Of a stretch of 64,000 bases of DNA, positions 22,800 through 32,792 are shown one piece after another. Source of the DNA: Kiritimatiellia bacterium (lineage in GTDB: Bacteria > Verrucomicrobiota > Kiritimatiellia > RFP12 > UBA1067); NCBI GenBank assembly GCA_050949565.1, contig JBMNFY010000010.1, positions 192,001-256,000 of the forward strand, written 5' to 3'. Positions within the stretch are counted from its first letter, which is position 1; the number at the start of each line of letters is the position of its first letter. The notes beneath the pieces are model-generated. The model did no database searches. It had not been told where the DNA came from and saw only the letters and a program-made list of their open reading frames with translations. The translations under genes and the position numbers were made by a program.

Positions 22800-24108
22800 C
22801 GCGCGCGACCGGCCAGCGCAACACCTAAAGTTTTGAAAGCGGCCACGCGTTGAAGTACACTTCCTTCATGCGGTAAACAGGAAGGAGACAAAAGTGTCTT
22901 ACGAACGCGTGACCGAGGGAGAGCGTAACCAGATTTACGCTTTGAGGCAAGCCGGAAAAGGCATCAACGAGATAGCGCGGCAACTGGGTCGCCACAAGAG
23001 CACGGTGAGCCGCGAAGTGAAGCGAAACGCCGGGCAGCGGGGCTACCGGCCCCGCCAGGCGCACCGGAAGGCCGTGGAGCGGGCGAAGCGTCCCGGTCCG
23101 AGGCGGTTCACTGAAGAGGTTCGGCGCTACGCGGAGGAGAAGCTCCGGCTGGGGTGGTCTCCCGAGGCGATCTGCGGGCGGGCCGGGTTGGAGGGCCGCG
23201 CGCACGTGTGCAAGGAGACGATCTACAAGCACGTGTACGCAGACGCGAAGGCGGGCGGCGACCTTTGGACGCATCTGGCGCGCGCGAAGCGCAGGCGCAA
23301 GCGGCGCTGCCCCCGCCAGGAGGGGCGCGGGCGGGGCGTAATTCCCGGCCGGCGCGGGATCGAGACGCGGCCGCCGGAAGTCGGGCTGCGTGTCGTGCCG
23401 GGGCACTGGGAGGGCGACCTCGTGGCCGGCGCGGCCGGGACGGGCTATCTCGTGACACTGGTGGAGCGGGTGACCCGGTTCGCACTGGTGGGGTGGGTGC
23501 CGACCAAGGAGGCGGACGTGGTCACCGCCGAGATCATCCGGCTGTTCAGAGAGATCGGCGTGATCTGCACAGGGATCACGTTCGACAACGGCAAGGAGTT
23601 CGCCGGCCACGCCGAGATATCCTGTGCCCTGGAGTTGAGGGACGGCGTGTTCTTCGCCACCCCGTACCACTCCTGGGAGCGGGGGACGAACGAGAACACG
23701 AACGGGCTGATCCGGCGCCTGTACCCCAAGAAGTCCTCGTTCGCATCGATCGGCGCGGCGGAGCTCCGGCGGATCGACGAGTTCCTGAACGACCGTCCGA
23801 AGAAGTGTCTCGGCTGGAAGACGCCGAGGGAGGTGATGGGCGCCTTCCTTGCCGCAGCCGTGTGAGCGGCATTCTCCAGCAAAGGGCGAGACCGCATCCC
23901 CTTCCCCGCCCCCTCCGGCGGAATACCGCCGGAGGGGGCGGGGAAGGGCCGGCCTTGCTGTGCCCTTGCGCAGCCCGGCTCCCTGCTCTGAGCCGGTTCA
24001 GCCTTGCCAAGCCCCCTCCCTCATGCCAAAATGACCTTCATTCAGCACCTGAAGGAAGCGCGCGCCCGCCAGCCAGCGGCCAGCGTTGCGCTGGCCGCTG
24101 GCTGGCGG
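22800..24108 (+). mobile_element. IS30-family insertion sequence (ends approximate)
   Basis: Inverted CGGCCAGCGCAAC at ~22810 and GTTGCGCTGGCCG at ~24085 bracket the transposase. Confidence 0.75.
22894..23865 (+). CDS. IS30-family transposase
   Basis: HTH (LGRHKSTVSREVKRN), GHWEGDLV, ITFDNGKEFA, SWERGTNENTNGLIR. Confidence 0.96.
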   Translation: MSYERVTEGERNQIYALRQAGKGINEIARQLGRHKSTVSREVKRNAGQRGYRPRQAHRKAVERAKRPGPRRFTEEVRRYAEEKLRLGWSPEAICGRAGLEGRAHVCKETIYKHVYADAKAGGDLWTHLARAKRRRKRRCPRQEGRGRGVIPGRRGIETRPPEVGLRVVPGHWEGDLVAGAAGTGYLVTLVERVTRFALVGWVPTKEADVVTAEIIRLFREIGVICTGITFDNGKEFAGHAEISCALELRDGVFFATPYHSWERGTNENTNGLIRRLYPKKSSFASIGAAELRRIDEFLNDRPKKCLGWKTPREVMGAFLAAAV

Positions 24109-24185
24109 GTGTGGTTGAGCGGAACGACCGGGCGTGTTATCCTTCTCGGTGCAAGTCACGTTTTTCATTTGTTCGAGAGGGAAAT

Positions 24186-26804
24186 ATGCGGATCAAAAGT
24201 ATTCTGGTTGTTGGGCTGGCGGCGGCTGTTGCGTGTGCGGCGCAGGATAATGGGCGGGCGGGGTGGTTCCCGTTTGTCATTCCGGACTTGGCGGATACGC
24301 ACACTGCCGGCACGCCGATTGACCTCTCGTTTCTCAACGCGGAGCCAGCGGGAGCGCACGGGCATCTGCGTCCGGACGGCGAGCGGATTGTGGATGGCCG
24401 CGGTCGCGAGGTACGATTGTTCGGATCGAATATCTGTGATTACCATCCCATGCCGCCCAAAGAGCAGGCGCCGCGCATGGCACGGCGGCTCCGGGAACTC
24501 GGCTTCAACTTTATCCGCCTGCATTATTTTGATTTTGCCAAAGCGCCGGTCGGTATCTTGAACGAGGATATGCAGACCTTGAACCCTGAAAAGCTCGACC
24601 AGTTTGATTGGCTGATCGCTCAGCTCAAGGAGAATGGCATCTACGTGGACATCAACCTGCACGTCTGCCGTCCCTATCCCGGCCAGCCGAAGGAGGTGCA
24701 CCGTTTCGGCAAGGGCATTGACTTCATCTATGAGCCGTATATCGCGTCGCAACAGCAATACGCGCGCGACTTGATCGGGCATGTCAATCCCTACACCGGA
24801 CTCTCCTACGCGAAAGATCCGGCTGTGGCGGTGATTGAGTTGAATAACGAGAACACCGTCTTTCAGATCGCCTACACGCTGGCGGGACTGCCGGAGCCGT
24901 TTCGTGGCGCGATAACGCGCAAATGGAATGGCTGGCTCGCCAAGAGGTATGGCAACAGCGAGGCCGTGCGTGCCGCGTGGAATGCCGCTGCACAGGCTGA
25001 GAAAGGGCCGGAACTGTTGACAAATGGAAGGTTTCGCGAAGGCACGCGCAACTGGTCGTTTCAGAATGCCGAAGGCGCGAAATCCACAACGAGCGTGGTG
25101 AATGACGCTGCAGATGACGCTCCCGCGCTGCGCTGGGAGGTGACGGCGGGCGGCAGCGAGTCGTGGCATGTGCAGGCCATGGTGCCCGACTTGCCGGTCG
25201 AACACGGCAAAACATACGCGGTCGCCTTCCGGGCGCGTGCGACAGGCGACAAGGCCGTAAAACTGGGTGTGGGCATGATGATGCAGCGGCCTCCGTGGAC
25301 CTCCGCGCACGGCGGGGCGACGATCACGCTCGATAGCACATGGCGCGAGTATGGCGTGACCTGCACGGTCGAGAATCCTAATGCTATTCCGATGCGGCTC
25401 AATTTTGCGGTCGGACGCCAGACCGGTGTGATTGAACTGACCGATGTTTCGGTACGCGAAGGCCGCTATGCAGTGATCGGGCTGCGTGACGGCGAGCGCG
25501 TGGAGGTAGGCAACGTGCCGCTGGTGGCGGACACCGCCTGTCCAGAGCGTTCGGCGGATTTCATGCGTTTTCTGATGGTTGAGGAGGAGGCTTATGTCTC
25601 GGCGATGATGCGCGTGTTGCGCGATGAGTTGGGCGCGCGTGCGATGATCTACTGTACGCAGGCTAATTATGGCGGATTGGCCGGTCTCCGGCGTGAGGCG
25701 CGTCACGGCGACCTGATCGACATGCACTGCTATCCGTGTCATCCTCGTGTCGTAGAGGATGAAGAGGGGAGACGTCGCCACACGGTTCGTAACGAGTCGA
25801 TGGTTGGCGCGGCGTTCGGTCCGCTTGAGGGTACGGCCTTGTGGCGGGTGGCGGGCAAGCCGTTTCTGATGACGGAGTTTGATCTCAATCCACCGAACGA
25901 TCATGCATCGGAGAACTTTTCGTTGCTGGCGTTGCTCGCGGCTTATCAGGGATGGGCAGGGTTCGCGGAGTATTCGTGGTATAACTTCCAAGGTGGCAAG
26001 CAGGGGCACAACCGCATTCAGAGCCACTACGCCACAACCGGGCATGCGGGACAAATGTGCATGGTACCAGCGATGGCACTTCTTTTCAGGCAAGGGCTTG
26101 TCGCCCCAGCGCGCGAGCCACTCACGCTGGATGTGCCCGAGCAGGAGATCGCCGCACGTGTGGCGGACAATGTCTGGAGCGGCATGTCAGGTCTGCTTGA
26201 ACGGGGCAAAGGGAACGTGTCGGATGTGTGGCGTCGCAAGGTGTCATGCCGATTGGTGTCATCAGGCGCGGCGCTCAGCGGTGCGAGCGGATTGGACGGA
26301 CGCTCAATCGTCAGCGACACGGGCGAGATCGAGTTTGACCGACAGGCGGAGGATGCGGTGTCGCTGCGGGTCAATGCCCCGGCCGCGCGTCTGTTGATCG
26401 GCAGGGTCGGCGGCCGGGCGTTTCAACTCGGAGATGTGCGCATGGAGGTCGGCGCCGGCACGCGCAACGGATATGCCAACATCGCACTGGTCGCACTCGA
26501 TGCGCGGCCGGTGACCGAGTCGCAGCGTCTGCTGCTCACAGCCGTGGCGCGTGTGGAGAACGCCGGACAACGCTGGAACGACGCGCGTACCGGCGTGATA
26601 GAGTGGGGGGAGGGGCCGACGGTGGCTGAACCGGTGACGCTGACCGTGACCCTGCCCGGCACGGGATGGCGCGCGACGGCGCTGGACGGCAGCGGGGGGC
26701 GTCAGGCGCAGGTGCCGATGGACGGTGCTGTGTTGAAAACATCGGGGGCGCATGCGACGCTCTGGTATCTGCTCGAACGGGGTGCCCCTAAAAAGAGCCG
26801 GTGA
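24186..26804 (+). CDS. Secreted GH5-like glycoside hydrolase with inserted CBM4/9-type module
   Basis: Signal peptide MRIKSILVVG; GFNFIRLH, GIYVDINLH, VIELNNEN, ELLTNGRF (CBM start), PFLMTEF. Confidence 0.8.
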   Translation: MRIKSILVVGLAAAVACAAQDNGRAGWFPFVIPDLADTHTAGTPIDLSFLNAEPAGAHGHLRPDGERIVDGRGREVRLFGSNICDYHPMPPKEQAPRMARRLRELGFNFIRLHYFDFAKAPVGILNEDMQTLNPEKLDQFDWLIAQLKENGIYVDINLHVCRPYPGQPKEVHRFGKGIDFIYEPYIASQQQYARDLIGHVNPYTGLSYAKDPAVAVIELNNENTVFQIAYTLAGLPEPFRGAITRKWNGWLAKRYGNSEAVRAAWNAAAQAEKGPELLTNGRFREGTRNWSFQNAEGAKSTTSVVNDAADDAPALRWEVTAGGSESWHVQAMVPDLPVEHGKTYAVAFRARATGDKAVKLGVGMMMQRPPWTSAHGGATITLDSTWREYGVTCTVENPNAIPMRLNFAVGRQTGVIELTDVSVREGRYAVIGLRDGERVEVGNVPLVADTACPERSADFMRFLMVEEEAYVSAMMRVLRDELGARAMIYCTQANYGGLAGLRREARHGDLIDMHCYPCHPRVVEDEEGRRRHTVRNESMVGAAFGPLEGTALWRVAGKPFLMTEFDLNPPNDHASENFSLLALLAAYQGWAGFAEYSWYNFQGGKQGHNRIQSHYATTGHAGQMCMVPAMALLFRQGLVAPAREPLTLDVPEQEIAARVADNVWSGMSGLLERGKGNVSDVWRRKVSCRLVSSGAALSGASGLDGRSIVSDTGEIEFDRQAEDAVSLRVNAPAARLLIGRVGGRAFQLGDVRMEVGAGTRNGYANIALVALDARPVTESQRLLLTAVARVENAGQRWNDARTGVIEWGEGPTVAEPVTLTVTLPGTGWRATALDGSGGRQAQVPMDGAVLKTSGAHATLWYLLERGAPKKSR

Positions 26805-26838
26805 ACTTTAAATACCTGTCCCTTAGTTGTCCTGGCCT

Positions 26839-26948
26839 CATGGGCGAGACGCCCATGCCACGGGGTGTGGCACGGGCATCCTGCCCGTGTTTGCCCCATG
26901 GGCGGGACGCCCATGCCACGGGGGTGTGGCACGGGCATCTTGCCCGTG
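26839..26948. repeat. Cluster of four alternating REP units downstream of the MmeI-like gene
   Basis: CATGGGCGAGACGCCCATGCCAC and GTGGCACGGGCATCCTGCCCGTG units, twice each. Confidence 0.9.
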
Positions 26949-28273
26949 TTCTGCGTCATCCCCCGGCACGTTCCAGATTCAACGCCAGAAGCCGTTCGAG
27001 GATCACGTCGTCGGAAAGATCGGCGGGCCAGCCGTAGGCGGCGGCGACGGCGGCATCAAGCCGAGCATGGCAGTCGGCCAGCCATGTCGGACGGGCGTTG
27101 TAGAGCTTTGTAAGGGTGCGCTGCCTGAGTTCTGCGGCTGACGCGCCTTCGGGGTTGAGCCAGCGGTCGCGCTTCACGACAAGGTCACGGGCCGCCTCGG
27201 CGATAGCCTTGGTCTCCACGGGACGCGGAAACGTCTCAAAACTGGTCGTCGGTGTGTAGCGACAACCGCTTGCGGCCTCACGCAACTGCGTTCCTTGGGC
27301 GCGAGCCCACACTTCATGGAAACGGGAATGGAGAATGCCGAAAAAGGCGTCGTCATCACGGGCGAAGACCAGTGTTCCCTGATTACAAAGCACTTCAGGG
27401 GAGACCCAAACAAACAGACGGTGTTTTGATACTCCAGGCGTAGCGATATAGCGCCGCTTGCCTCGCAAGGCGGTACGCATTTCAGGCCGGGGTCTGGCAT
27501 ACTGCCACCACATGCCCCGGTAATCGTCGCGCCGCGTCTCGCGCACAGGCAGAACATTCGCTTTCACGTATTCAAACGGTTTTTCATACTGGGCGGCTTC
27601 CCCTATCGGCATCACTCCAAAGTCAATGGTCCACATTCCGCGCGAGCCTTGGGCTATATCGACCGCACTCACGACCGGGCGCACAACGTCGGCGTTGGGA
27701 CGGCCGTTGGGGTTTCCCTTGTCGGCGAGCATCACTGCGGCGGTTTCAGCATCAATATCAAAGGGCGCTTTGGGTGATGGCCCCATGAAACAGATTCCCC
27801 GATTCTCGGCGAGAATAGCTGCCGTTGTGATGTCGGCGCATGAGGTGAGATTGGCGTTGATCGTGGCGACCAGGTTGCCGTCGAGAATGCGGGACTGCTC
27901 CTCGCCGTCGTCGAAACCGACCATGCTGACGTGGACATTCGCGCCGTCGAGAATCCAGGGGCGGTCGCTCTCGGCCCAGAAGATGTCGCCGGATTCCTTG
28001 ATGCGCTTGAGCACCTCGCGGTTGGCGCCGCCGCGGATGCCCTGGGTGGCGAGTAGTCCGGCGCGCCTGCATTTGCCGACGGCGATGTGGGCACGGGCCT
28101 TCTCGAACCAGTAGCAGCAGAGATCGGCAAACGCCGGCACACGGCCTTCATAAAGAGCGAACAGCTGCTCGACGTAATCGCTCCCAAGCTCCTGCCGGAT
28201 ACGGTTCCCGCCCAGAAACGGCGGGTTGCCGATGATGAAGTCCACGGCGGGCCATTCAGGTTCGCGCACGTTT

Positions 28274-28376
28274 GTGGCACGGGCATCTTGCCCGTGGGGT
28301 GCTGTACTTGTGGCATGGGCATCCTGCCCATGTTGGCTCACGGGCGGGACGCCCGTGCCACGTCCGCCCGTGCCAC
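28274..28376. repeat. REP array 3' of the RAYT domain, translated in frame
   Basis: Encodes RGTGVPPVSQHGQDAHAT...HGQDARAT before EPEWP. Confidence 0.9.
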
Positions 28377-28407
28377 ACTGAACGCTTATGCCACACGCGA
28401 CGCCCAT

Positions 28408-29001
28408 CCATTTCCAGTCTGCCAGTCCTGCTTGTGCTGGATTCTTCAGCACGTACTCCACTTGCTTGCGAAAATCTTTTTCATCTCGGATGAGATGGTC
28501 ATAATATTCGGCCTGTCAGAATTCGCCGCTCCGGTTCAGGATTTCGTTCGCCTTCTTGGCCGTGAACGATTTCCACGAGTGCAGGATGTCTGCCACGTTG
28601 TGCCCTGCGGCGGGGCGTAGAACGGCATGCACGTGATTGGGCATCACGCACCAAGCCAGCAAGGTGTAGCGGGGGCCGTCGAAATGGGCGAGGGCGTCGC
28701 GCACGATGCTGGCGATGCGCTCGTCCTTGAGCCAACATGCGCCATAGCCGCTGTCCAGCCACTTCTCCACCTTTTCCGCATACAACACCGCCAGACGTTG
28801 GCGCTCAGACTCGGAAAGGTCGCGTCCCGCTTGGGACGCGGTCTTGACAATGTCCTCTCGCTCCATGATCCACTGCCGCAACACCTCTGACGGCAGAGAA
28901 TCACACAGCCGGAAGACAACGACATAGGTGGCGTTCTCCTGTGTCCAGTGCGGCAGATAGGCACCGTGACGTATATCCACGCGGGCAAAGGGGTTCAGCA
29001 T
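28408..29001 (-). mobile_element. REP-associated tyrosine transposase (RAYT, Y1 HUH) domain embedded in the methyltransferase
   Basis: YLPHW...YVVVFRL, AWCVMPNHVH (HUH), SWKSFTA, F*QAEYYDHLIRD, EYVLKNP (catalytic Tyr region); no stop codon at its own end. Confidence 0.9.
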
Positions 29002-29002
29002 C

Positions 29003-29291
29003 GTGGCACGGGCGATGTTTGTGGCATGGGCATCCTGCCCATGTTGGCTCACGGGCGAGACGCCCGTGCCACCCGCCGTATTCGTGGCATGGGCATCCTG
29101 CCCATGTTGGACCACGGGCGGGACGCCCGTGCCACCCGCCGTATTCGTGGCATGGGCATCCTGCCCATGTTGGCTCACGGGCGAGACGCCCGTGCCACCC
29201 GCCGTATTCGTGGCATGGGCATCTTGCCCATGATGGCCCACGGGCGAGACGCCCGTGCCACGTTCGCCCGTGCCACGTTCGTCCGCGCCAC
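29003..29291. repeat. In-frame REP array: 4 x 63-bp doublets (29021, 29084, 29147, 29210) plus half-REPs
   Basis: 21-aa repeat GTGVSPVSQHGQDAHATNTAG in the translation. Confidence 0.95.
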
Positions 29292-29695
29292 AGTCGATGA
29301 TCGCGCTCATCAGCCGGATGTTGTCAGAGAGGGGGCGCAGGATCGGATCGGCGGGGAAGCCGAAACCGTTGACGCGGATCCACTGCAGCCAGCCGATCCA
29401 GACGGTCATCTGGGCGAGGCCGTGCGCGTAGGGGTTGATCTCGATGCCGTAGAGCTGCCACGGGCCGACACCGGGCAGGTAGGTGTTCAGGCCGTGTGCG
29501 CTGGGGAAGATGACGGCGGCTTCGAGTTCGAGGTCTTTCAGTCGCAGAAGGGCGACGTAGAGGAAGTTGCCGGAGCCGCAGGCGGGGTCGAGAATCTTCA
29601 CTTCGCGCAGCCGTATCAGGAATTGGTGCAGGATGCTGTCGGCTTCGATCCGCGCCTTTTTAAGGGCGGCGGCACTCAATGGTTTGCGATTAGAT

Positions 29696-29906
29696 GTGGC
29701 GCGGACAATGTTCGTGGCATGGGCATCTTGCCCATGATGGACCACGGGCGAGACGCCCGTGGCACCCGCAGCATTCGTGGCATGGGCATCTTGCCCATGA
29801 TGGACCACGGGCGAGACGCCCGTGGCACCCGCAGCATTCGTGGCATGGGCATCCTGCCCATGTTGAACCACGGGCGGGACGCCCGTGCCACGTTCGCCCG
29901 CGCCAC
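29696..29906. repeat. In-frame REP array: 3 x 63-bp doublets (29714, 29777, 29840) plus half-REPs
   Basis: 21-aa repeat ATGVSPVVHHGQDAHATNAAG in the translation. Confidence 0.95.
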
Positions 29907-31020
29907 GCTTCTTTCCGGTAGCCAGCAGGCATTCGATGGTCGCCTTGATCTCTTCCCAGTCGCGCCGCAACGGCGTCATGACCACGGTGTCCACAACCCG
30001 TTCGATGTCCTCGCGTCCGGTGAAATGCGCGCCGAGCTGCGAACGCTTGGCCGGGTCGAGGCCGCGCTCGAAGAGGGTGCCGAAGATGGAGGGATCGACG
30101 GCGCTCCAGTCGAGCGACGAGACGGCGGCAAGCCGTTTGATGTCGTCGGGGGTGAGGCCGGGGACGGTGTGGTCGTCGAAGAGGCTGCCGTTGAAGTGGC
30201 GGATGGCCTCGAGACCGAAATCGCCGCCGGTGGCCATCGCCTCGAAGAGCGAGGTCAGGCTTCTGCCGAACCGCGCGGGGTCTGCGCCGGTCTTCTCCAG
30301 CATCCGGGTAAAGATCATGTCGGGCAGGAGTGCCGAGTCTTCGGCGAAGAGGCAAAAAACGATGCGGTCCAGGAAGTGGGCGACGGTGCCGGGGTCGAGG
30401 CCGCGTTCGCGCATGGCGGCGGCAATCTCGCCGATTCGGGCGGCGGCTTCCTGGGTGACGGCGACGCTGGTGCGGCCGGGGATGAGAGCCTTGGGATTGT
30501 GAAAGACGGCCCGCATGATTTCGATGTTGCGGGGCTCGGCGAGGGCTTCGAGCGGGATTTCGTGGACGTCGGATACGGTGCCGGTGAAGTTGGTGCGCAC
30601 CACGATGCGATCCAGATCGCACAGGACGAGCAGGGGCGGATTCTCCAGCGCATTGCGGTAGCGCAGGAGCTGGTCAAAGGCGGTGTCGAGATCCTTGTGC
30701 TTGCCCTTGTATTCCCAGCCAGCCGAAGAAGCCGCGCTTCCAGACATCGGCGAAGCCGTCGCCCCCGCCGTGCTTGGCGGCACCCTTCTCGAAGCAGAAT
30801 GACTCGCCGGTGGGATCGGCGGCTGCGGGCGTGGGATGGTCAAAGACATGGCAGAGGTCGAGAAAATGCTCTTGCGCGGCGGAGCGTTCCTTTAGCTCCA
30901 CCTTGCGCCACTTGGCAATGAACTCGTGTACAGTCATAGACAACACAATACCACGCGGATAAAGCCGGGAACAAGGCGGATGTGTAAGCTGACCGTTTCT
31001 AGCGTTTCTTGCTCATAAGT

Positions 31021-31131
31021 GTGGCACGGGCATCCTGCCCGTGTTTTGGCACCATGGGCGGGACGCCCATGTCACGTGTTCCGGCATCATGGGCGGGACG
31101 CCCATGCCACGAGGGTTTTCGCAAGAGCCTC
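31021..31131. repeat. Three REP units plus one MITE arm upstream of the MmeI-like gene
   Basis: REPs at 31021-31110 followed by GAGGGTTTTCGCAAGAGCCTC. Confidence 0.85.
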
Positions 31132-31151
31132 GTCTGCTAAAAACGGAGGGG

Positions 31152-32792
31152 TTATGGCAGCGCGGCCAAAGCCTGTTGCAGGTTCGGGTAGAACATCCGG
31201 TCACCCGGCAGATCACCCCAACCGGCTCTTCGGACGATATCTCTGACGCCCGCTTTCATGCCGGCGCAAGCGAACTGCACGTTGGCGGCGGCGCAGTCGC
31301 GCATCAGCTCCGTCAACATCGATACGGCCACGCCATCGATATCATTGACGCCGGACATGTCCAGCAGTACCCAGCGCACCTCGGGCTGTTGCGCCAGAAG
31401 TTCCCTGATCCGGTCTTCCACAAATCCGGCATTGGCGAAATAGAGGCTGGCTTCGAAACGCAGGATCAGTAGCCAGGGCTGCGTGACCGCATCCGGATAA
31501 CGCCGGAGGTCGCGAAACTCTTGCTCTCCGACCCGTCCCAGAATCGACATCCCCGGGCGAGCACTGCGCAGGACGAACAGCATGAGCGAAAAAGCGATAC
31601 CGGCTAGCAGTCCTCTGTCCATCCCAAAGCCCAGTGTCACCAGAAAGGTCACCACGAAGCTCCAGCCGTCGGCCTGCTTGATTTTAAAGAGGTACCGCGC
31701 TTCCTTGAAATCGATCAAGCCGATCACCGCCACCAGAATGATTGCCGCCAATACCGCATTGGGCAGATGGGTGAACAATGGCGTCAAGAACAGCAGCGTC
31801 AACAAGACTAGCGCGGCCGTGAAGACCGACGCCAGCGGTGTGCGTGCGCCGGCCTGATAGTTCACCGCAGTGCGGGAAAAACCGCCTGCGACCGGGTAGC
31901 CGGAAAACAGGCCGCCTGCCACATTGGCCAATCCCAGTCCAAGCATTTCACGGTTGGCGTCGATGCGATATTTCTCGCGGGTGGCGATCCACTTCGCCAC
32001 CGCGATGGACTCCATCGTGCCGACAAAGACAATCATCCATGCCGAAGGCAGCAGGTGCCGGATGCCATTCCAAGACATGTCGGGCAAACGCCAAGCCGGC
32101 AGGCCGCTGGAAACCTTTCCGACCGCGCGCACGCCGTACGCTTCCAGATTGAACGTCCAGACCAGCAGGATGGCTGCTGCGATAATCGGCAAGGTGACCG
32201 GGAAGCGCCAGCGTTTGAAGCGAGCCAGAAGCTGAATCGCGACAGCGCCCAAACCAATCGCAAGTGTCGGCAGATGCGTGTCAGAGAGGTTGCGCATCAC
32301 ATCCAGAGCCAGCGCCAGCACGGAGTTTCCGCCCGACAACTTGACCCCCAGCAGGTGCCCAAACTGGCTGAGGCCGATCATAATGGCGCCTGCGGAGGTA
32401 AAGCCGCTGACCACGGCATGCGAGACGAAGTTGAGCAGAAAACCCGCACGGCACAGCCCGAGTGCGATTTGTATCGCCCCGACCAGCAACGCCAGCGCGG
32501 CCGCCCGACCGGTTATCGTCGCCACATCGGCAACGGTACCCGCCGGTCCGACGCAGGCATCGGCCACCAACAGCGACACAATAGCGACAGGCCCGACCGC
32601 AAGTTGCCGCGACGTACCCAAGCACGCATAAGCGAGCAAGGGCACAGTCGAGGCATACAGCCCAACCACAGGCGGCAACCCGGCCAGCATCGCATAGGCC
32701 ATCGCTTGCGGCACTAACATCACCGCAACAATCAGTCCGGCGATGATGTCCTTACGCAAGTCCTGCCGACTGTAGGTCCGCAACCAGGTCAC
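31152..32792 (-). CDS. SulP/SLC26 anion permease with STAS domain
   Basis: DIIAGLIVAVMLVPQAMAYA, GGFSRTAVN, LYFANA...LDMSGVNDID. Confidence 0.93.
   Translation of the reverse strand: MTWLRTYSRQDLRKDIIAGLIVAVMLVPQAMAYAMLAGLPPVVGLYASTVPLLAYACLGTSRQLAVGPVAIVSLLVADACVGPAGTVADVATITGRAAALALLVGAIQIALGLCRAGFLLNFVSHAVVSGFTSAGAIMIGLSQFGHLLGVKLSGGNSVLALALDVMRNLSDTHLPTLAIGLGAVAIQLLARFKRWRFPVTLPIIAAAILLVWTFNLEAYGVRAVGKVSSGLPAWRLPDMSWNGIRHLLPSAWMIVFVGTMESIAVAKWIATREKYRIDANREMLGLGLANVAGGLFSGYPVAGGFSRTAVNYQAGARTPLASVFTAALVLLTLLFLTPLFTHLPNAVLAAIILVAVIGLIDFKEARYLFKIKQADGWSFVVTFLVTLGFGMDRGLLAGIAFSLMLFVLRSARPGMSILGRVGEQEFRDLRRYPDAVTQPWLLILRFEASLYFANAGFVEDRIRELLAQQPEVRWVLLDMSGVNDIDGVAVSMLTELMRDCAAANVQFACAGMKAGVRDIVRRAGWGDLPGDRMFYPNLQQALAALP

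Follow-up and report, generated by a model that had tools for sequence, protein, structure and literature searches.

REP-associated tyrosine transposases (RAYTs) are viewed as single-copy, stand-alone 'domesticated' transposases that look after their genome's repetitive extragenic palindromic (REP) elements. Here we describe a RAYT that lies inside another gene. In the stretch analysed (the window: 64,000 nucleotides of contig JBMNFY010000010.1, from the Kiritimatiellia bacterium assembly GCA_050949565.1), an MmeI-family type IIL restriction-modification gene on the minus strand carries in frame a cassette consisting of a REP array, a RAYT domain and a further REP array. A first-pass annotation of this DNA, made from the letters, had proposed such a frame-preserving REP-RAYT-REP cassette, and the open reading frame, the Pfam matches and the single frame of an orthologue in a second, independent assembly of the same genus (G004; the window's own genome is G000) bear it out. 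We favour, at a probability of about 0.68 and on the strength of sequence comparison and predicted structure, the reading that a start-less, stop-less REPtron (the RAYT-REPIN system) is probably translated as a tolerated domain insertion in an MmeI-family enzyme.

Inteins with homing endonucleases place a selfish nuclease gene in frame in conserved, even essential, host proteins; they recur at the same site of homologous hosts, and filled and empty alleles of that site coexist. The window cassette is like them in its in-frame embedding, in its recurrence at one site and in having filled and empty alleles, but unlike them it has no Hint domain or splicing motifs, its ends are DNA hairpins, and it is presumably kept in the protein. 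Nested RAYTs would join inteins as a second case in nature of a selfish nuclease concealed within host proteins. The host gene has the domain order of MmeI (PDB 5HR4), namely a D..EXK nuclease, a helical spacer, a gamma-class methyltransferase and a target-recognition domain, and departs from MmeI in its two in-frame repeat inserts, its RAYT domain and the inactivation of the window copy.

The REPtron, as portrayed in the passages cited, is represented by the E. coli TnpA-REP protein (PDB 4ER8) and by the RAYTs of Pseudomonas (PMC3333891, PMC3479197, PMC5581495, PMC3733652, PMC6006769). Our locus resembles it in encoding a nuclease of the Y1 HUH type that has the HUH and Tyr motifs and is flanked by REP hairpins of its own, in the single copy of this subfamily that the genome has alongside hundreds of REPs (473 cores), and in having 4ER8 as its best structural match; it differs in that the window RAYT lacks a start and stop of its own, is nested in frame in a gene and has REP flanks that are predicted to be translated. 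Intragenic REPs of the GTAG/CGTC type have been described in a study that also cites the Rickettsia palindromic elements (RPEs), and the consulted part of that study reports that in-frame REP-type hairpin repeats encode 20-80 extra residues in otherwise normal proteins, with the verrucomicrobial Opitutus as the richest case (Di Nocera et al. 2013, PMC3733652). The window gene shares with these systems the hairpin repeats in frame within a protein gene, and is set apart from them by an insert that carries a whole transposase domain, of which the same part of PMC3733652 contains no case. Unexpectedly long members of the RAYT family have been discarded as fusions or annotation errors, according to the relevant passage of Quentin et al. 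(2018, PMC6006769). In the literature searched, which leaves aside the unread supplementary tables of PMC3733652 that may bear on the point, no account turned up of RAYTs lying in frame within host genes, and the nested REPtron variant appears to be undescribed. In-frame nesting alters the way in which such genes should be annotated, since at present they are split, mislabelled 'transposase' or discarded as fusions.

An in-frame REP-RAYT-REP cassette in an MmeI-family gene

The cassette runs from 29292 to 28264 and measures 1029 nt, or 343 codons (97 + 204 + 42); the host frame is identical on either side of it, and the only stop is the TGA listed in Table 1. The motifs DPACGSGNF, SAIID, LPHW, VMPNHVH, F*QAEYYDHLIRD, YVLKNP, EPEWP and GNPPF all share one minus-strand frame, as had been claimed in the first pass, and the extent given there (28265-29291, about 340 inserted codons in a continuous frame) proved correct to within 1-3 nt. 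Its placement between methyltransferase motifs I and IV also stands, and can be narrowed to the interval between motifs III and IV.

Table 1. Positions in the window of the restriction-modification gene, its inserts, its lesions and the adjoining repeats.
Feature	Position	Strand	Remarks
MmeI-family type IIL restriction-modification gene	26956..30946	-	Open reading frame and Pfam; broken in G000, one 1375-codon frame in G004
GGCT duplication (4 nt)	~30721..30724	-	Frameshift in GFFGW|EYKGKHKDL, directly before the nuclease catalytic EYK; not in G004
REP array 1	29689..29904	-	72 codons; three 63-nt REPIN units, peptide GTGV(P/S)PV..HGQDAHAT
Methyltransferase domain, first part	29293..29688	-	Motif I DPACGSGNF; ends ...NIRLMSAIID; MmeI_Mtase profile positions 8-85
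REP array 2	29002..29292	-	97 codons with four REPIN units of 63 nt; flanks the RAYT on its upstream side
RAYT domain (Y1 HUH)	28390..29001	-	204 codons in the host frame, without its own stop
In-frame TGA	28516..28518	-	At RAYT Trp162 (TGG in G004), upstream of catalytic Tyr183
REP array 3	28264..28389	-	42 codons; downstream flank of the RAYT; ...HGQDARATNVR, then EPEWP
Methyltransferase domain, second part, and target-recognition domain	26956..28263	-	EPEWP, motif IV GNPPF; MmeI_Mtase profile positions 136-257; MmeI_TRD
Intergenic REP cluster just upstream of the gene	31016..31121	.	Same REP family as the arrays of the gene
Intergenic REP cluster just downstream of the gene	26827..26950	.	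Same REP family as the arrays of the gene

The Pfam profile MmeI_Mtase is split by the cassette (Table 1), MmeI_hel matches the host gene at E 3e-13, and MmeI_TRD reaches 26.9 bits, borderline against its cut-off of 27. Helical spacer, methyltransferase and target-recognition domains follow one another in the order of the MmeI family, with motifs I and IV present. What we take, from an alignment to MmeI, to be the D..EXK nuclease motif is intact and in an unbroken frame in the G004 orthologue, and is not so in the window copy.

The first-pass annotation recognised the REP content of the RAYT flanks and overlooked a second in-frame array, array 1, which occupies the linker from the helical spacer to the methyltransferase domain ('site 1'), upstream of motif I. 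The units of array 2 are REP doublets and encode the peptide GTGV(S/P)PV..HGQDAHATNTAG; the junction peptides of the cassette are REP-derived (GTGVPPV.., ..HGQDAHAT) and variable between hosts. Pfam gave no Hint or intein family (E<=0.01 for the window copy; 1e-4 in a second scan), in agreement with the absence of Hint motifs asserted in the first pass.

The domain between the arrays matches Y1_Tnp (PF01797) at 25.2 bits in the window copy (cut-off 23) and at 28.4 bits in G004, and the cassette carries the RAYT motifs LPHW, NHVH, FWQ, YDH and YVLKNP, of which NHVH is the HUH motif and YVLKNP contains the catalytic tyrosine. Its stand-alone relatives of 112-359 aa number 4539 at E<=1e-3 among 4930 candidates, several of them annotated by their source as 'REP element-mobilizing transposase RayT'. 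An AlphaFold model of G004 residues 438-1075, built on a 72-row alignment, gives the RAYT part a per-residue confidence (pLDDT) of 80-95 and the two REP-coded stretches values below 50. The best PDB match of this model in Foldseek is 4ER8_A, the E. coli RAYT bound to its REP hairpin (E 7.3e-7, TM (target) 0.55), followed by the TnpA proteins of IS200, IS608 and ISDra2. Profile, HUH and Tyr residues, REP flanks and predicted fold all identify the cassette domain as a RAYT, for which cleavage and joining of single-stranded REP DNA is the predicted activity.

The genome holds 473 REP cores (at most 4 mismatches to a 21-mer) in 253 clusters, mostly as inverted doublets 24 nt apart. Their stem positions covary, pair 5-19 being CG in 258 and TA in 201 cores and pair 10-14 AT in 272 and GC in 196, with only 8 and 5 unpaired cores respectively; this covariation marks the REPs as real hairpins, and as hairpins that are maintained. 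The window RAYT is the sole member of its subfamily in the genome, and no other Y1 gene there lies so densely among these REPs: 14 cores fall within 1.5 kb of it, whereas the genome's other Y1 matches have 0-2. Same-strand cores inside the gene are 63 nt apart in 5/6 intervals, whereas those outside it are mostly spaced by 56-60 nt and by 63 nt in 0/48 intervals, a comparison that carries the caveat of array collapse during assembly. The two intergenic clusters of Table 1 bracket the entire restriction-modification gene. Metagenome contig joints between the two (26950>31087) were set aside: their sides measure at most 45 nt and join REP to REP, and they most likely come from other REP loci. 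Frames open for at least 100 codons on both sides contain 31 of the 253 clusters, two of which are arrays of the window gene; as most of the other 29 through-frames are intergenic repeats joined to their neighbours by chance, no abundance of intragenic REPs is claimed for G000.

Intact and broken alleles of the window gene

The G004 orthologue is a single open frame of 1375 codons, with TGG for TGA and without the GGCT duplication, and its locus has the same neighbours as that of the window, a SulP transporter and a gene of the metallo-beta-lactamase (MBL)-rhodanese type. A JGI protein from another source (P0122) repeats the G004 allele. Over 3846 aligned columns the G000 and G004 alleles show 87 substitutions. 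They are further separated by indels (63, 78, 63 and 219 nt), every one a multiple of 3 and situated within a REP array; the number of REP units differs in all three arrays, and the sole indel that is not a multiple of 3 is the 4-nt duplication.

The first-pass annotation had raised the possibility of a misassembly joining two loci through REPs. Two DNA and two RNA-library runs, aligned to 26700-31200 as contigs, lend this something, since the short-read contigs of all four break inside REP arrays; the same order of parts, however, recurs in the 416-kb contig of G000, in G004, in P0122 and in two diverged MmeI homologues, P0131 and P0132 (contigs of 42.8 and 5.1 kb), and by this recurrence a misassembly is excluded with near certainty.

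At the TGA the window copy has lost a tryptophan that its RAYT relatives share without exception (129/129 fused and 119/119 stand-alone domains), and because the TGA stands upstream of Tyr183 this copy cannot make the catalytic tyrosine. Both lesions are real, for DNA contigs from runs X13 and X2 span 28332-29047 and 29862-30787 and match the window at the lesion positions; X2 is a possible source sample, and X13 is not flagged as one. The window stretch is nearly complete (0.97-0.99 of sampled words) in 14 DNA runs of metagenomes from digesters, sludge and bioreactors. The window copy is a pseudogene with two lesions, and recently dead; the first pass had seen the TGA and missed both the duplication and the pseudogene status. 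One contig of RNA library X15 (depth 8) is without the 4-nt duplication and has an extra C after 30233, as a third allele or a contig error.

Over the 923 codons of the host parts, G000 and G004 differ with a nonsynonymous divergence (dN) of 0.009 and a synonymous divergence (dS) of 0.073, a dN/dS of 0.12; two neighbouring genes give 0.10 and 0.05. On the basis of this ratio the host gene appears to have been constrained, that is under purifying selection, until recently. When the gene is divided at its REP arrays, synonymous codon changes amount to 8/345, 13/139, 1/205 (RAYT) and 23/439 (chi-square p 9e-5), and the RAYT segment (window 28390-29001 against G004:C150 1836-2450) shows about 10x less divergence than either the host or its neighbours. 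Such low divergence suggests recombination with break points in the arrays, or a recent replacement of the RAYT.

These data bear on the view that the gene died first, that repeats and a RAYT then piled into it, and that the open frame is an accident of GC-rich DNA. The window copy, with a frameshift and a TGA that both recur in metagenome contigs, is what such a history would leave, GC-rich DNA does give long chance frames, and most through-frames at the genome's other REP clusters look accidental. It is nonetheless quite improbable, as it does not account for an orthologue intact over 1375 codons or for a host dN/dS of 0.12, nor for what the wider survey below yields: an architecture kept in the diverged P0131 and P0132, catalytic residues kept in 128-129/129 fused domains, and hosts that include ValRS, AlaRS, MetH and IspG.

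In-frame inserts in MmeI homologues and in other proteins

Empty-site alleles, which the first-pass annotation had expected an alignment of homologues to reveal, exist in G005 (same genus), G010, G031 and G028, and the empty G005 protein matches MmeI (PDB 5HR4) at E 2e-42. Aligned to them, site 1 is an unalignable linker after GRK(R/K), and site 2, where the cassette lies, is a short loop from ...NIRLM.SIL (motif III strand) to EPEWP..GNPPF (motif IV). Arrays 1-3 are palindromic repeats of a genomic family, set in frame into loops that hold no insert in these four genomes. In the diverged homologues P0131 and P0132 a RAYT occupies the site that it has in the window gene, with 75% and 70% RAYT identity to G004 against 74-81% in the host domains. 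Among the MmeI copies the RAYT identities (70-75%) track those of the host domains (74-83%), as is consistent with long co-residence.

Among the 120 homologues closest to the empty MmeI allele, the distance from WIGW to GNPPF measures 50-51 residues in 89, 55-61 in 14 and at least 65 in 12; four further homologues of the same listing comprise three with other distances and one in which the anchors were not found. The 12 long forms have at least 14 extra residues at site 2, which in 10 of them are in-frame REP-type peptides of at least 3 families, and P0295 has at this site a single REPIN of the window gene's own REP family. Two other MmeI homologues, P0310 and P0361, hold a RAYT of a different subfamily (SRGYLPHFDH, MPNHVHVMIE) in frame at site 1, with GAGVPPA-type repeats of its own. 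Since REP peptides and RAYTs have come to lie repeatedly at sites 1 and 2, both loops are, as the comparison of homologues indicates, recurrent and apparently tolerated landing places. Site 1 of the window gene holds a REP array only, unlike that of P0310 and P0361. At site 2 of G035:C32 and P0273 we observed an in-frame insert of about 150 residues that is not a RAYT, between other repeats (SRESGIGSRES ... PIPDSRLPIP), with shorter forms in P0285, P0347 and P0309; in G035 the host frame upstream of this insert is broken.

The first pass had also suggested looking for the same RAYT in unrelated host genes, and in-frame copies turned up in many, including ValRS, MetH and Sua5. Among 4113 candidates, 1689 proteins of 360-2000 aa match the window RAYT at E<=1e-3, a lower bound and not a frequency. 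All 120 of the long proteins listed contain a full-length RAYT domain, and 10 contain two. By Pfam, the hosts among these 120 are class I aminoacyl-tRNA synthetases (21, mostly ValRS), Sua5/TsaC (16), N4/N6 methyltransferases (14), type ISP (10) and Eco57I-like (9) enzymes, MetH (5), DUF1156 (4), TatD (4), AlaRS (3), MenF (3), IspG (2), helicases and HsdR; fused proteins from isolates include those of Opitutaceae TAV1 (P0236) and Pontiellaceae B1224 (P0176). REP-type peptides again flank the RAYT inserts in other hosts. Across 129 fused domains the catalytic residues are kept almost without exception (H123 in 129, H125 in 128, Tyr183 in 129), and there is no methionine at the RAYT start in P0131, P0132 and most other fused copies.

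Within a same-class sample of 301 genomes, 110 have a match at E<=1e-20. Of 185 class matches, the 150 listed include 59 in open frames of at least 450 aa, which is an upper estimate, and 89 in frames of at most 380 aa. Ten of the longest class loci were inspected, and all ten have recognisable host sequence in the RAYT frame; Pfam host domains lie on both sides in 7/10 (XseA, HypF, HsdR, a SNF2/NOV_C helicase and three Eco57I-type enzymes) and on one side only in 3/10. As a candidate essential host within the phylum, no RAYT-bearing valS was found among the valS frames of a 251-genome sample; the one long frame inspected there, of 1446 aa in G099, was rejected as a chance upstream extension. 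In the HypF at G132:C74 the RAYT lies just after a YrdC/Sua5-like domain, and in the Sua5 proteins P0152-P0200 it lies between PF01300 and the next domain, the same relative place. The two-RAYT proteins P0123-P0129, P0134, P0137 and P0139 are MetH, IspG and DUF1156 proteins with two in-frame domains each. Taken with the window locus, these matches mark the cassette as evidently one case of a widespread REPtron variant.

The breadth of this host range is what decides on the coupling of the nuclease to defence that the first-pass annotation had entertained, in which the HUH nuclease would be a working part of the enzyme, acting for example on single-stranded phage or plasmid DNA. Restriction-modification and methyltransferase hosts are indeed common among the 120 listed proteins (MmeI, Eco57I-like, type ISP, N4/N6, HsdM, HsdR, DUF1156), and the nearest relatives of the window RAYT all sit in restriction-modification genes; that list, however, was ordered by similarity to a RAYT from just such a gene. 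The same family occurs in ValRS, AlaRS, Sua5, MetH, IspG, TatD, MenF, XseA and HypF, at least 103 of the 120 listed close MmeI homologues are without a sizeable insert at site 2, and the flanks are ordinary genomic REPs. A co-opted domain is thus very doubtful, and because of the wide host range a dedicated defence role is unlikely.

Translation, removal and the history of nested RAYTs

Among the four mechanisms offered in the first pass, a tolerated loop fusion fits best. A REPtron without its own start or stop would sit in a permissive loop at the surface, between methyltransferase motifs III and IV, and the whole cassette would be translated with the host, the RAYT forming an extra globular domain on disordered REP-coded linkers. 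The host enzyme would stay functional, and the RAYT would be expressed only through the host gene, a dependence indicated by the missing start methionine of P0131, P0132 and most fused copies. Inserts and array changes would survive only as multiples of three, selection removing those that break the frame. The site would act as a REP 'landing pad', at which RAYTs arrive or are replaced through recombination of in-phase REPINs or through transposition of the whole cassette. In the window lineage the gene has died only recently: the frameshift destroys the nuclease motif, and the TGA cuts off the RAYT ahead of its catalytic tyrosine, together with all that lies downstream.

The first-pass annotation had also considered excision from DNA by the RAYT itself and looping out through REP pairing. 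In a wider version of this reading the insert would be removed either from DNA, by its own RAYT or by recombination of direct REPIN repeats, or from RNA, as a switch that restores the enzyme in some cells. Direct in-phase REPIN repeats do flank the RAYT, the homologue P0295 has just one REPIN at this position and G005 an empty site, unit numbers vary between alleles, and the RAYT segment looks recently exchanged. No joint skipping 28264-29292 was seen, however, in the two DNA and two RNA-library runs, in contigs to which rare forms are invisible. Removal before translation would also leave unaccounted for a stop-less RAYT and a downstream junction that is in phase across diverged lineages, and Pfam gives no sign of a group I/II intron or of an intein (no search of RNA families was made). 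No RNA-library contig covers the RAYT body (28361-28964), and RNA cover is patchy elsewhere too. We consider a removable insert unlikely.

Several points weigh against the tolerated-fusion reading. The window copy is doubly broken, with its lesions present in the X13 and X2 contigs, and no working fusion is demonstrated for G000; the case for a fusion protein is built on sequence comparison and predicted structure. The methyltransferase parts of the AlphaFold model reach a pLDDT of 50-75 with a pTM of 0.45 on a shallow host alignment, so that the modelled fold with the insert is tentative. Tandem arrays may collapse in short-read assemblies, and collapse would also preserve multiples of 63. 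With 1/205 synonymous codon changes in the RAYT against 44/923 in the host (Fisher p 0.002), the RAYT segment is so little diverged that some of the divergence of the host may be older than the RAYT copy it now carries, and the dN/dS argument is weaker for it. The empty G005 is nearer to G004 in the N-terminal half (85-91%) than are the RAYT-bearing P0131 and P0132, which makes the history of gain and loss ambiguous. Finally, the protein counts come from length-filtered candidate sets, and GC-rich DNA inflates open-frame lengths, as in the valS of G099, which is why the 59 long class frames stand as an upper estimate.

We also examined the descent of the nested domains in a RAYT tree with 129 fused and 40 stand-alone domains, on which host labels cluster strongly: 48 changes against 119 when shuffled (0/200 shuffles as low). 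Stand-alone copies are interleaved with fused ones (18 changes of state). The window RAYT groups with P0131 and P0132 (MmeI, same site) and with those of three other restriction-modification enzymes that have their inserts at other sites; a clade of the three MmeI copies alone has a support of 68, by which it is neither shown nor rejected. Six RAYTs at one site of Eco57I-like enzymes do not form one clade (p-AU 0.0085, for a group named after the first tree was seen). In the two-RAYT proteins each position forms its own clade, which implies, as far as the tree can tell, two old insertions inherited together. Where the frames of stand-alone RAYTs extend by at least 20 residues, the REPs are in the same phase in 19/20 C-terminal and 17/36 N-terminal cases.

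The interleaving of stand-alone and fused copies, the lack of a single clade at the Eco57I-like site, the low divergence of the window RAYT and the same-phase extensions hint at something broader than a single tolerated fusion. One RAYT subfamily may live inside other genes as a regular strategy, start-less and stop-less, borrowing the expression of its host, protected from deletion in needed genes (aminoacyl-tRNA synthetases, MetH, IspG, a restriction-modification methyltransferase) and moving or being replaced at REP landing pads in permissive loops. This we advance tentatively, as a proposal with somewhat less than an even chance of being right. Such a strategy would occupy an intein-like niche without protein splicing, and restriction-modification genes would in addition serve as vehicles of horizontal spread.

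What the survey does document is a large RAYT subfamily that keeps its catalytic residues and is found routinely in frame in other proteins, essential enzymes and phage-defence methyltransferases among them. Its inserts show which surface loops of these enzymes can take up a folded domain of 200 residues on disordered linkers, knowledge that is of use in protein engineering, and the pair formed by the dead allele of G000 and the intact allele of G004 provides a directly testable case. Elsewhere in the window, a long plus-strand frame at 23154-26804 encodes in its second half a secreted protein that looks carbohydrate-active; the first ~330 codons of the frame resemble a chance extension in GC-rich DNA.

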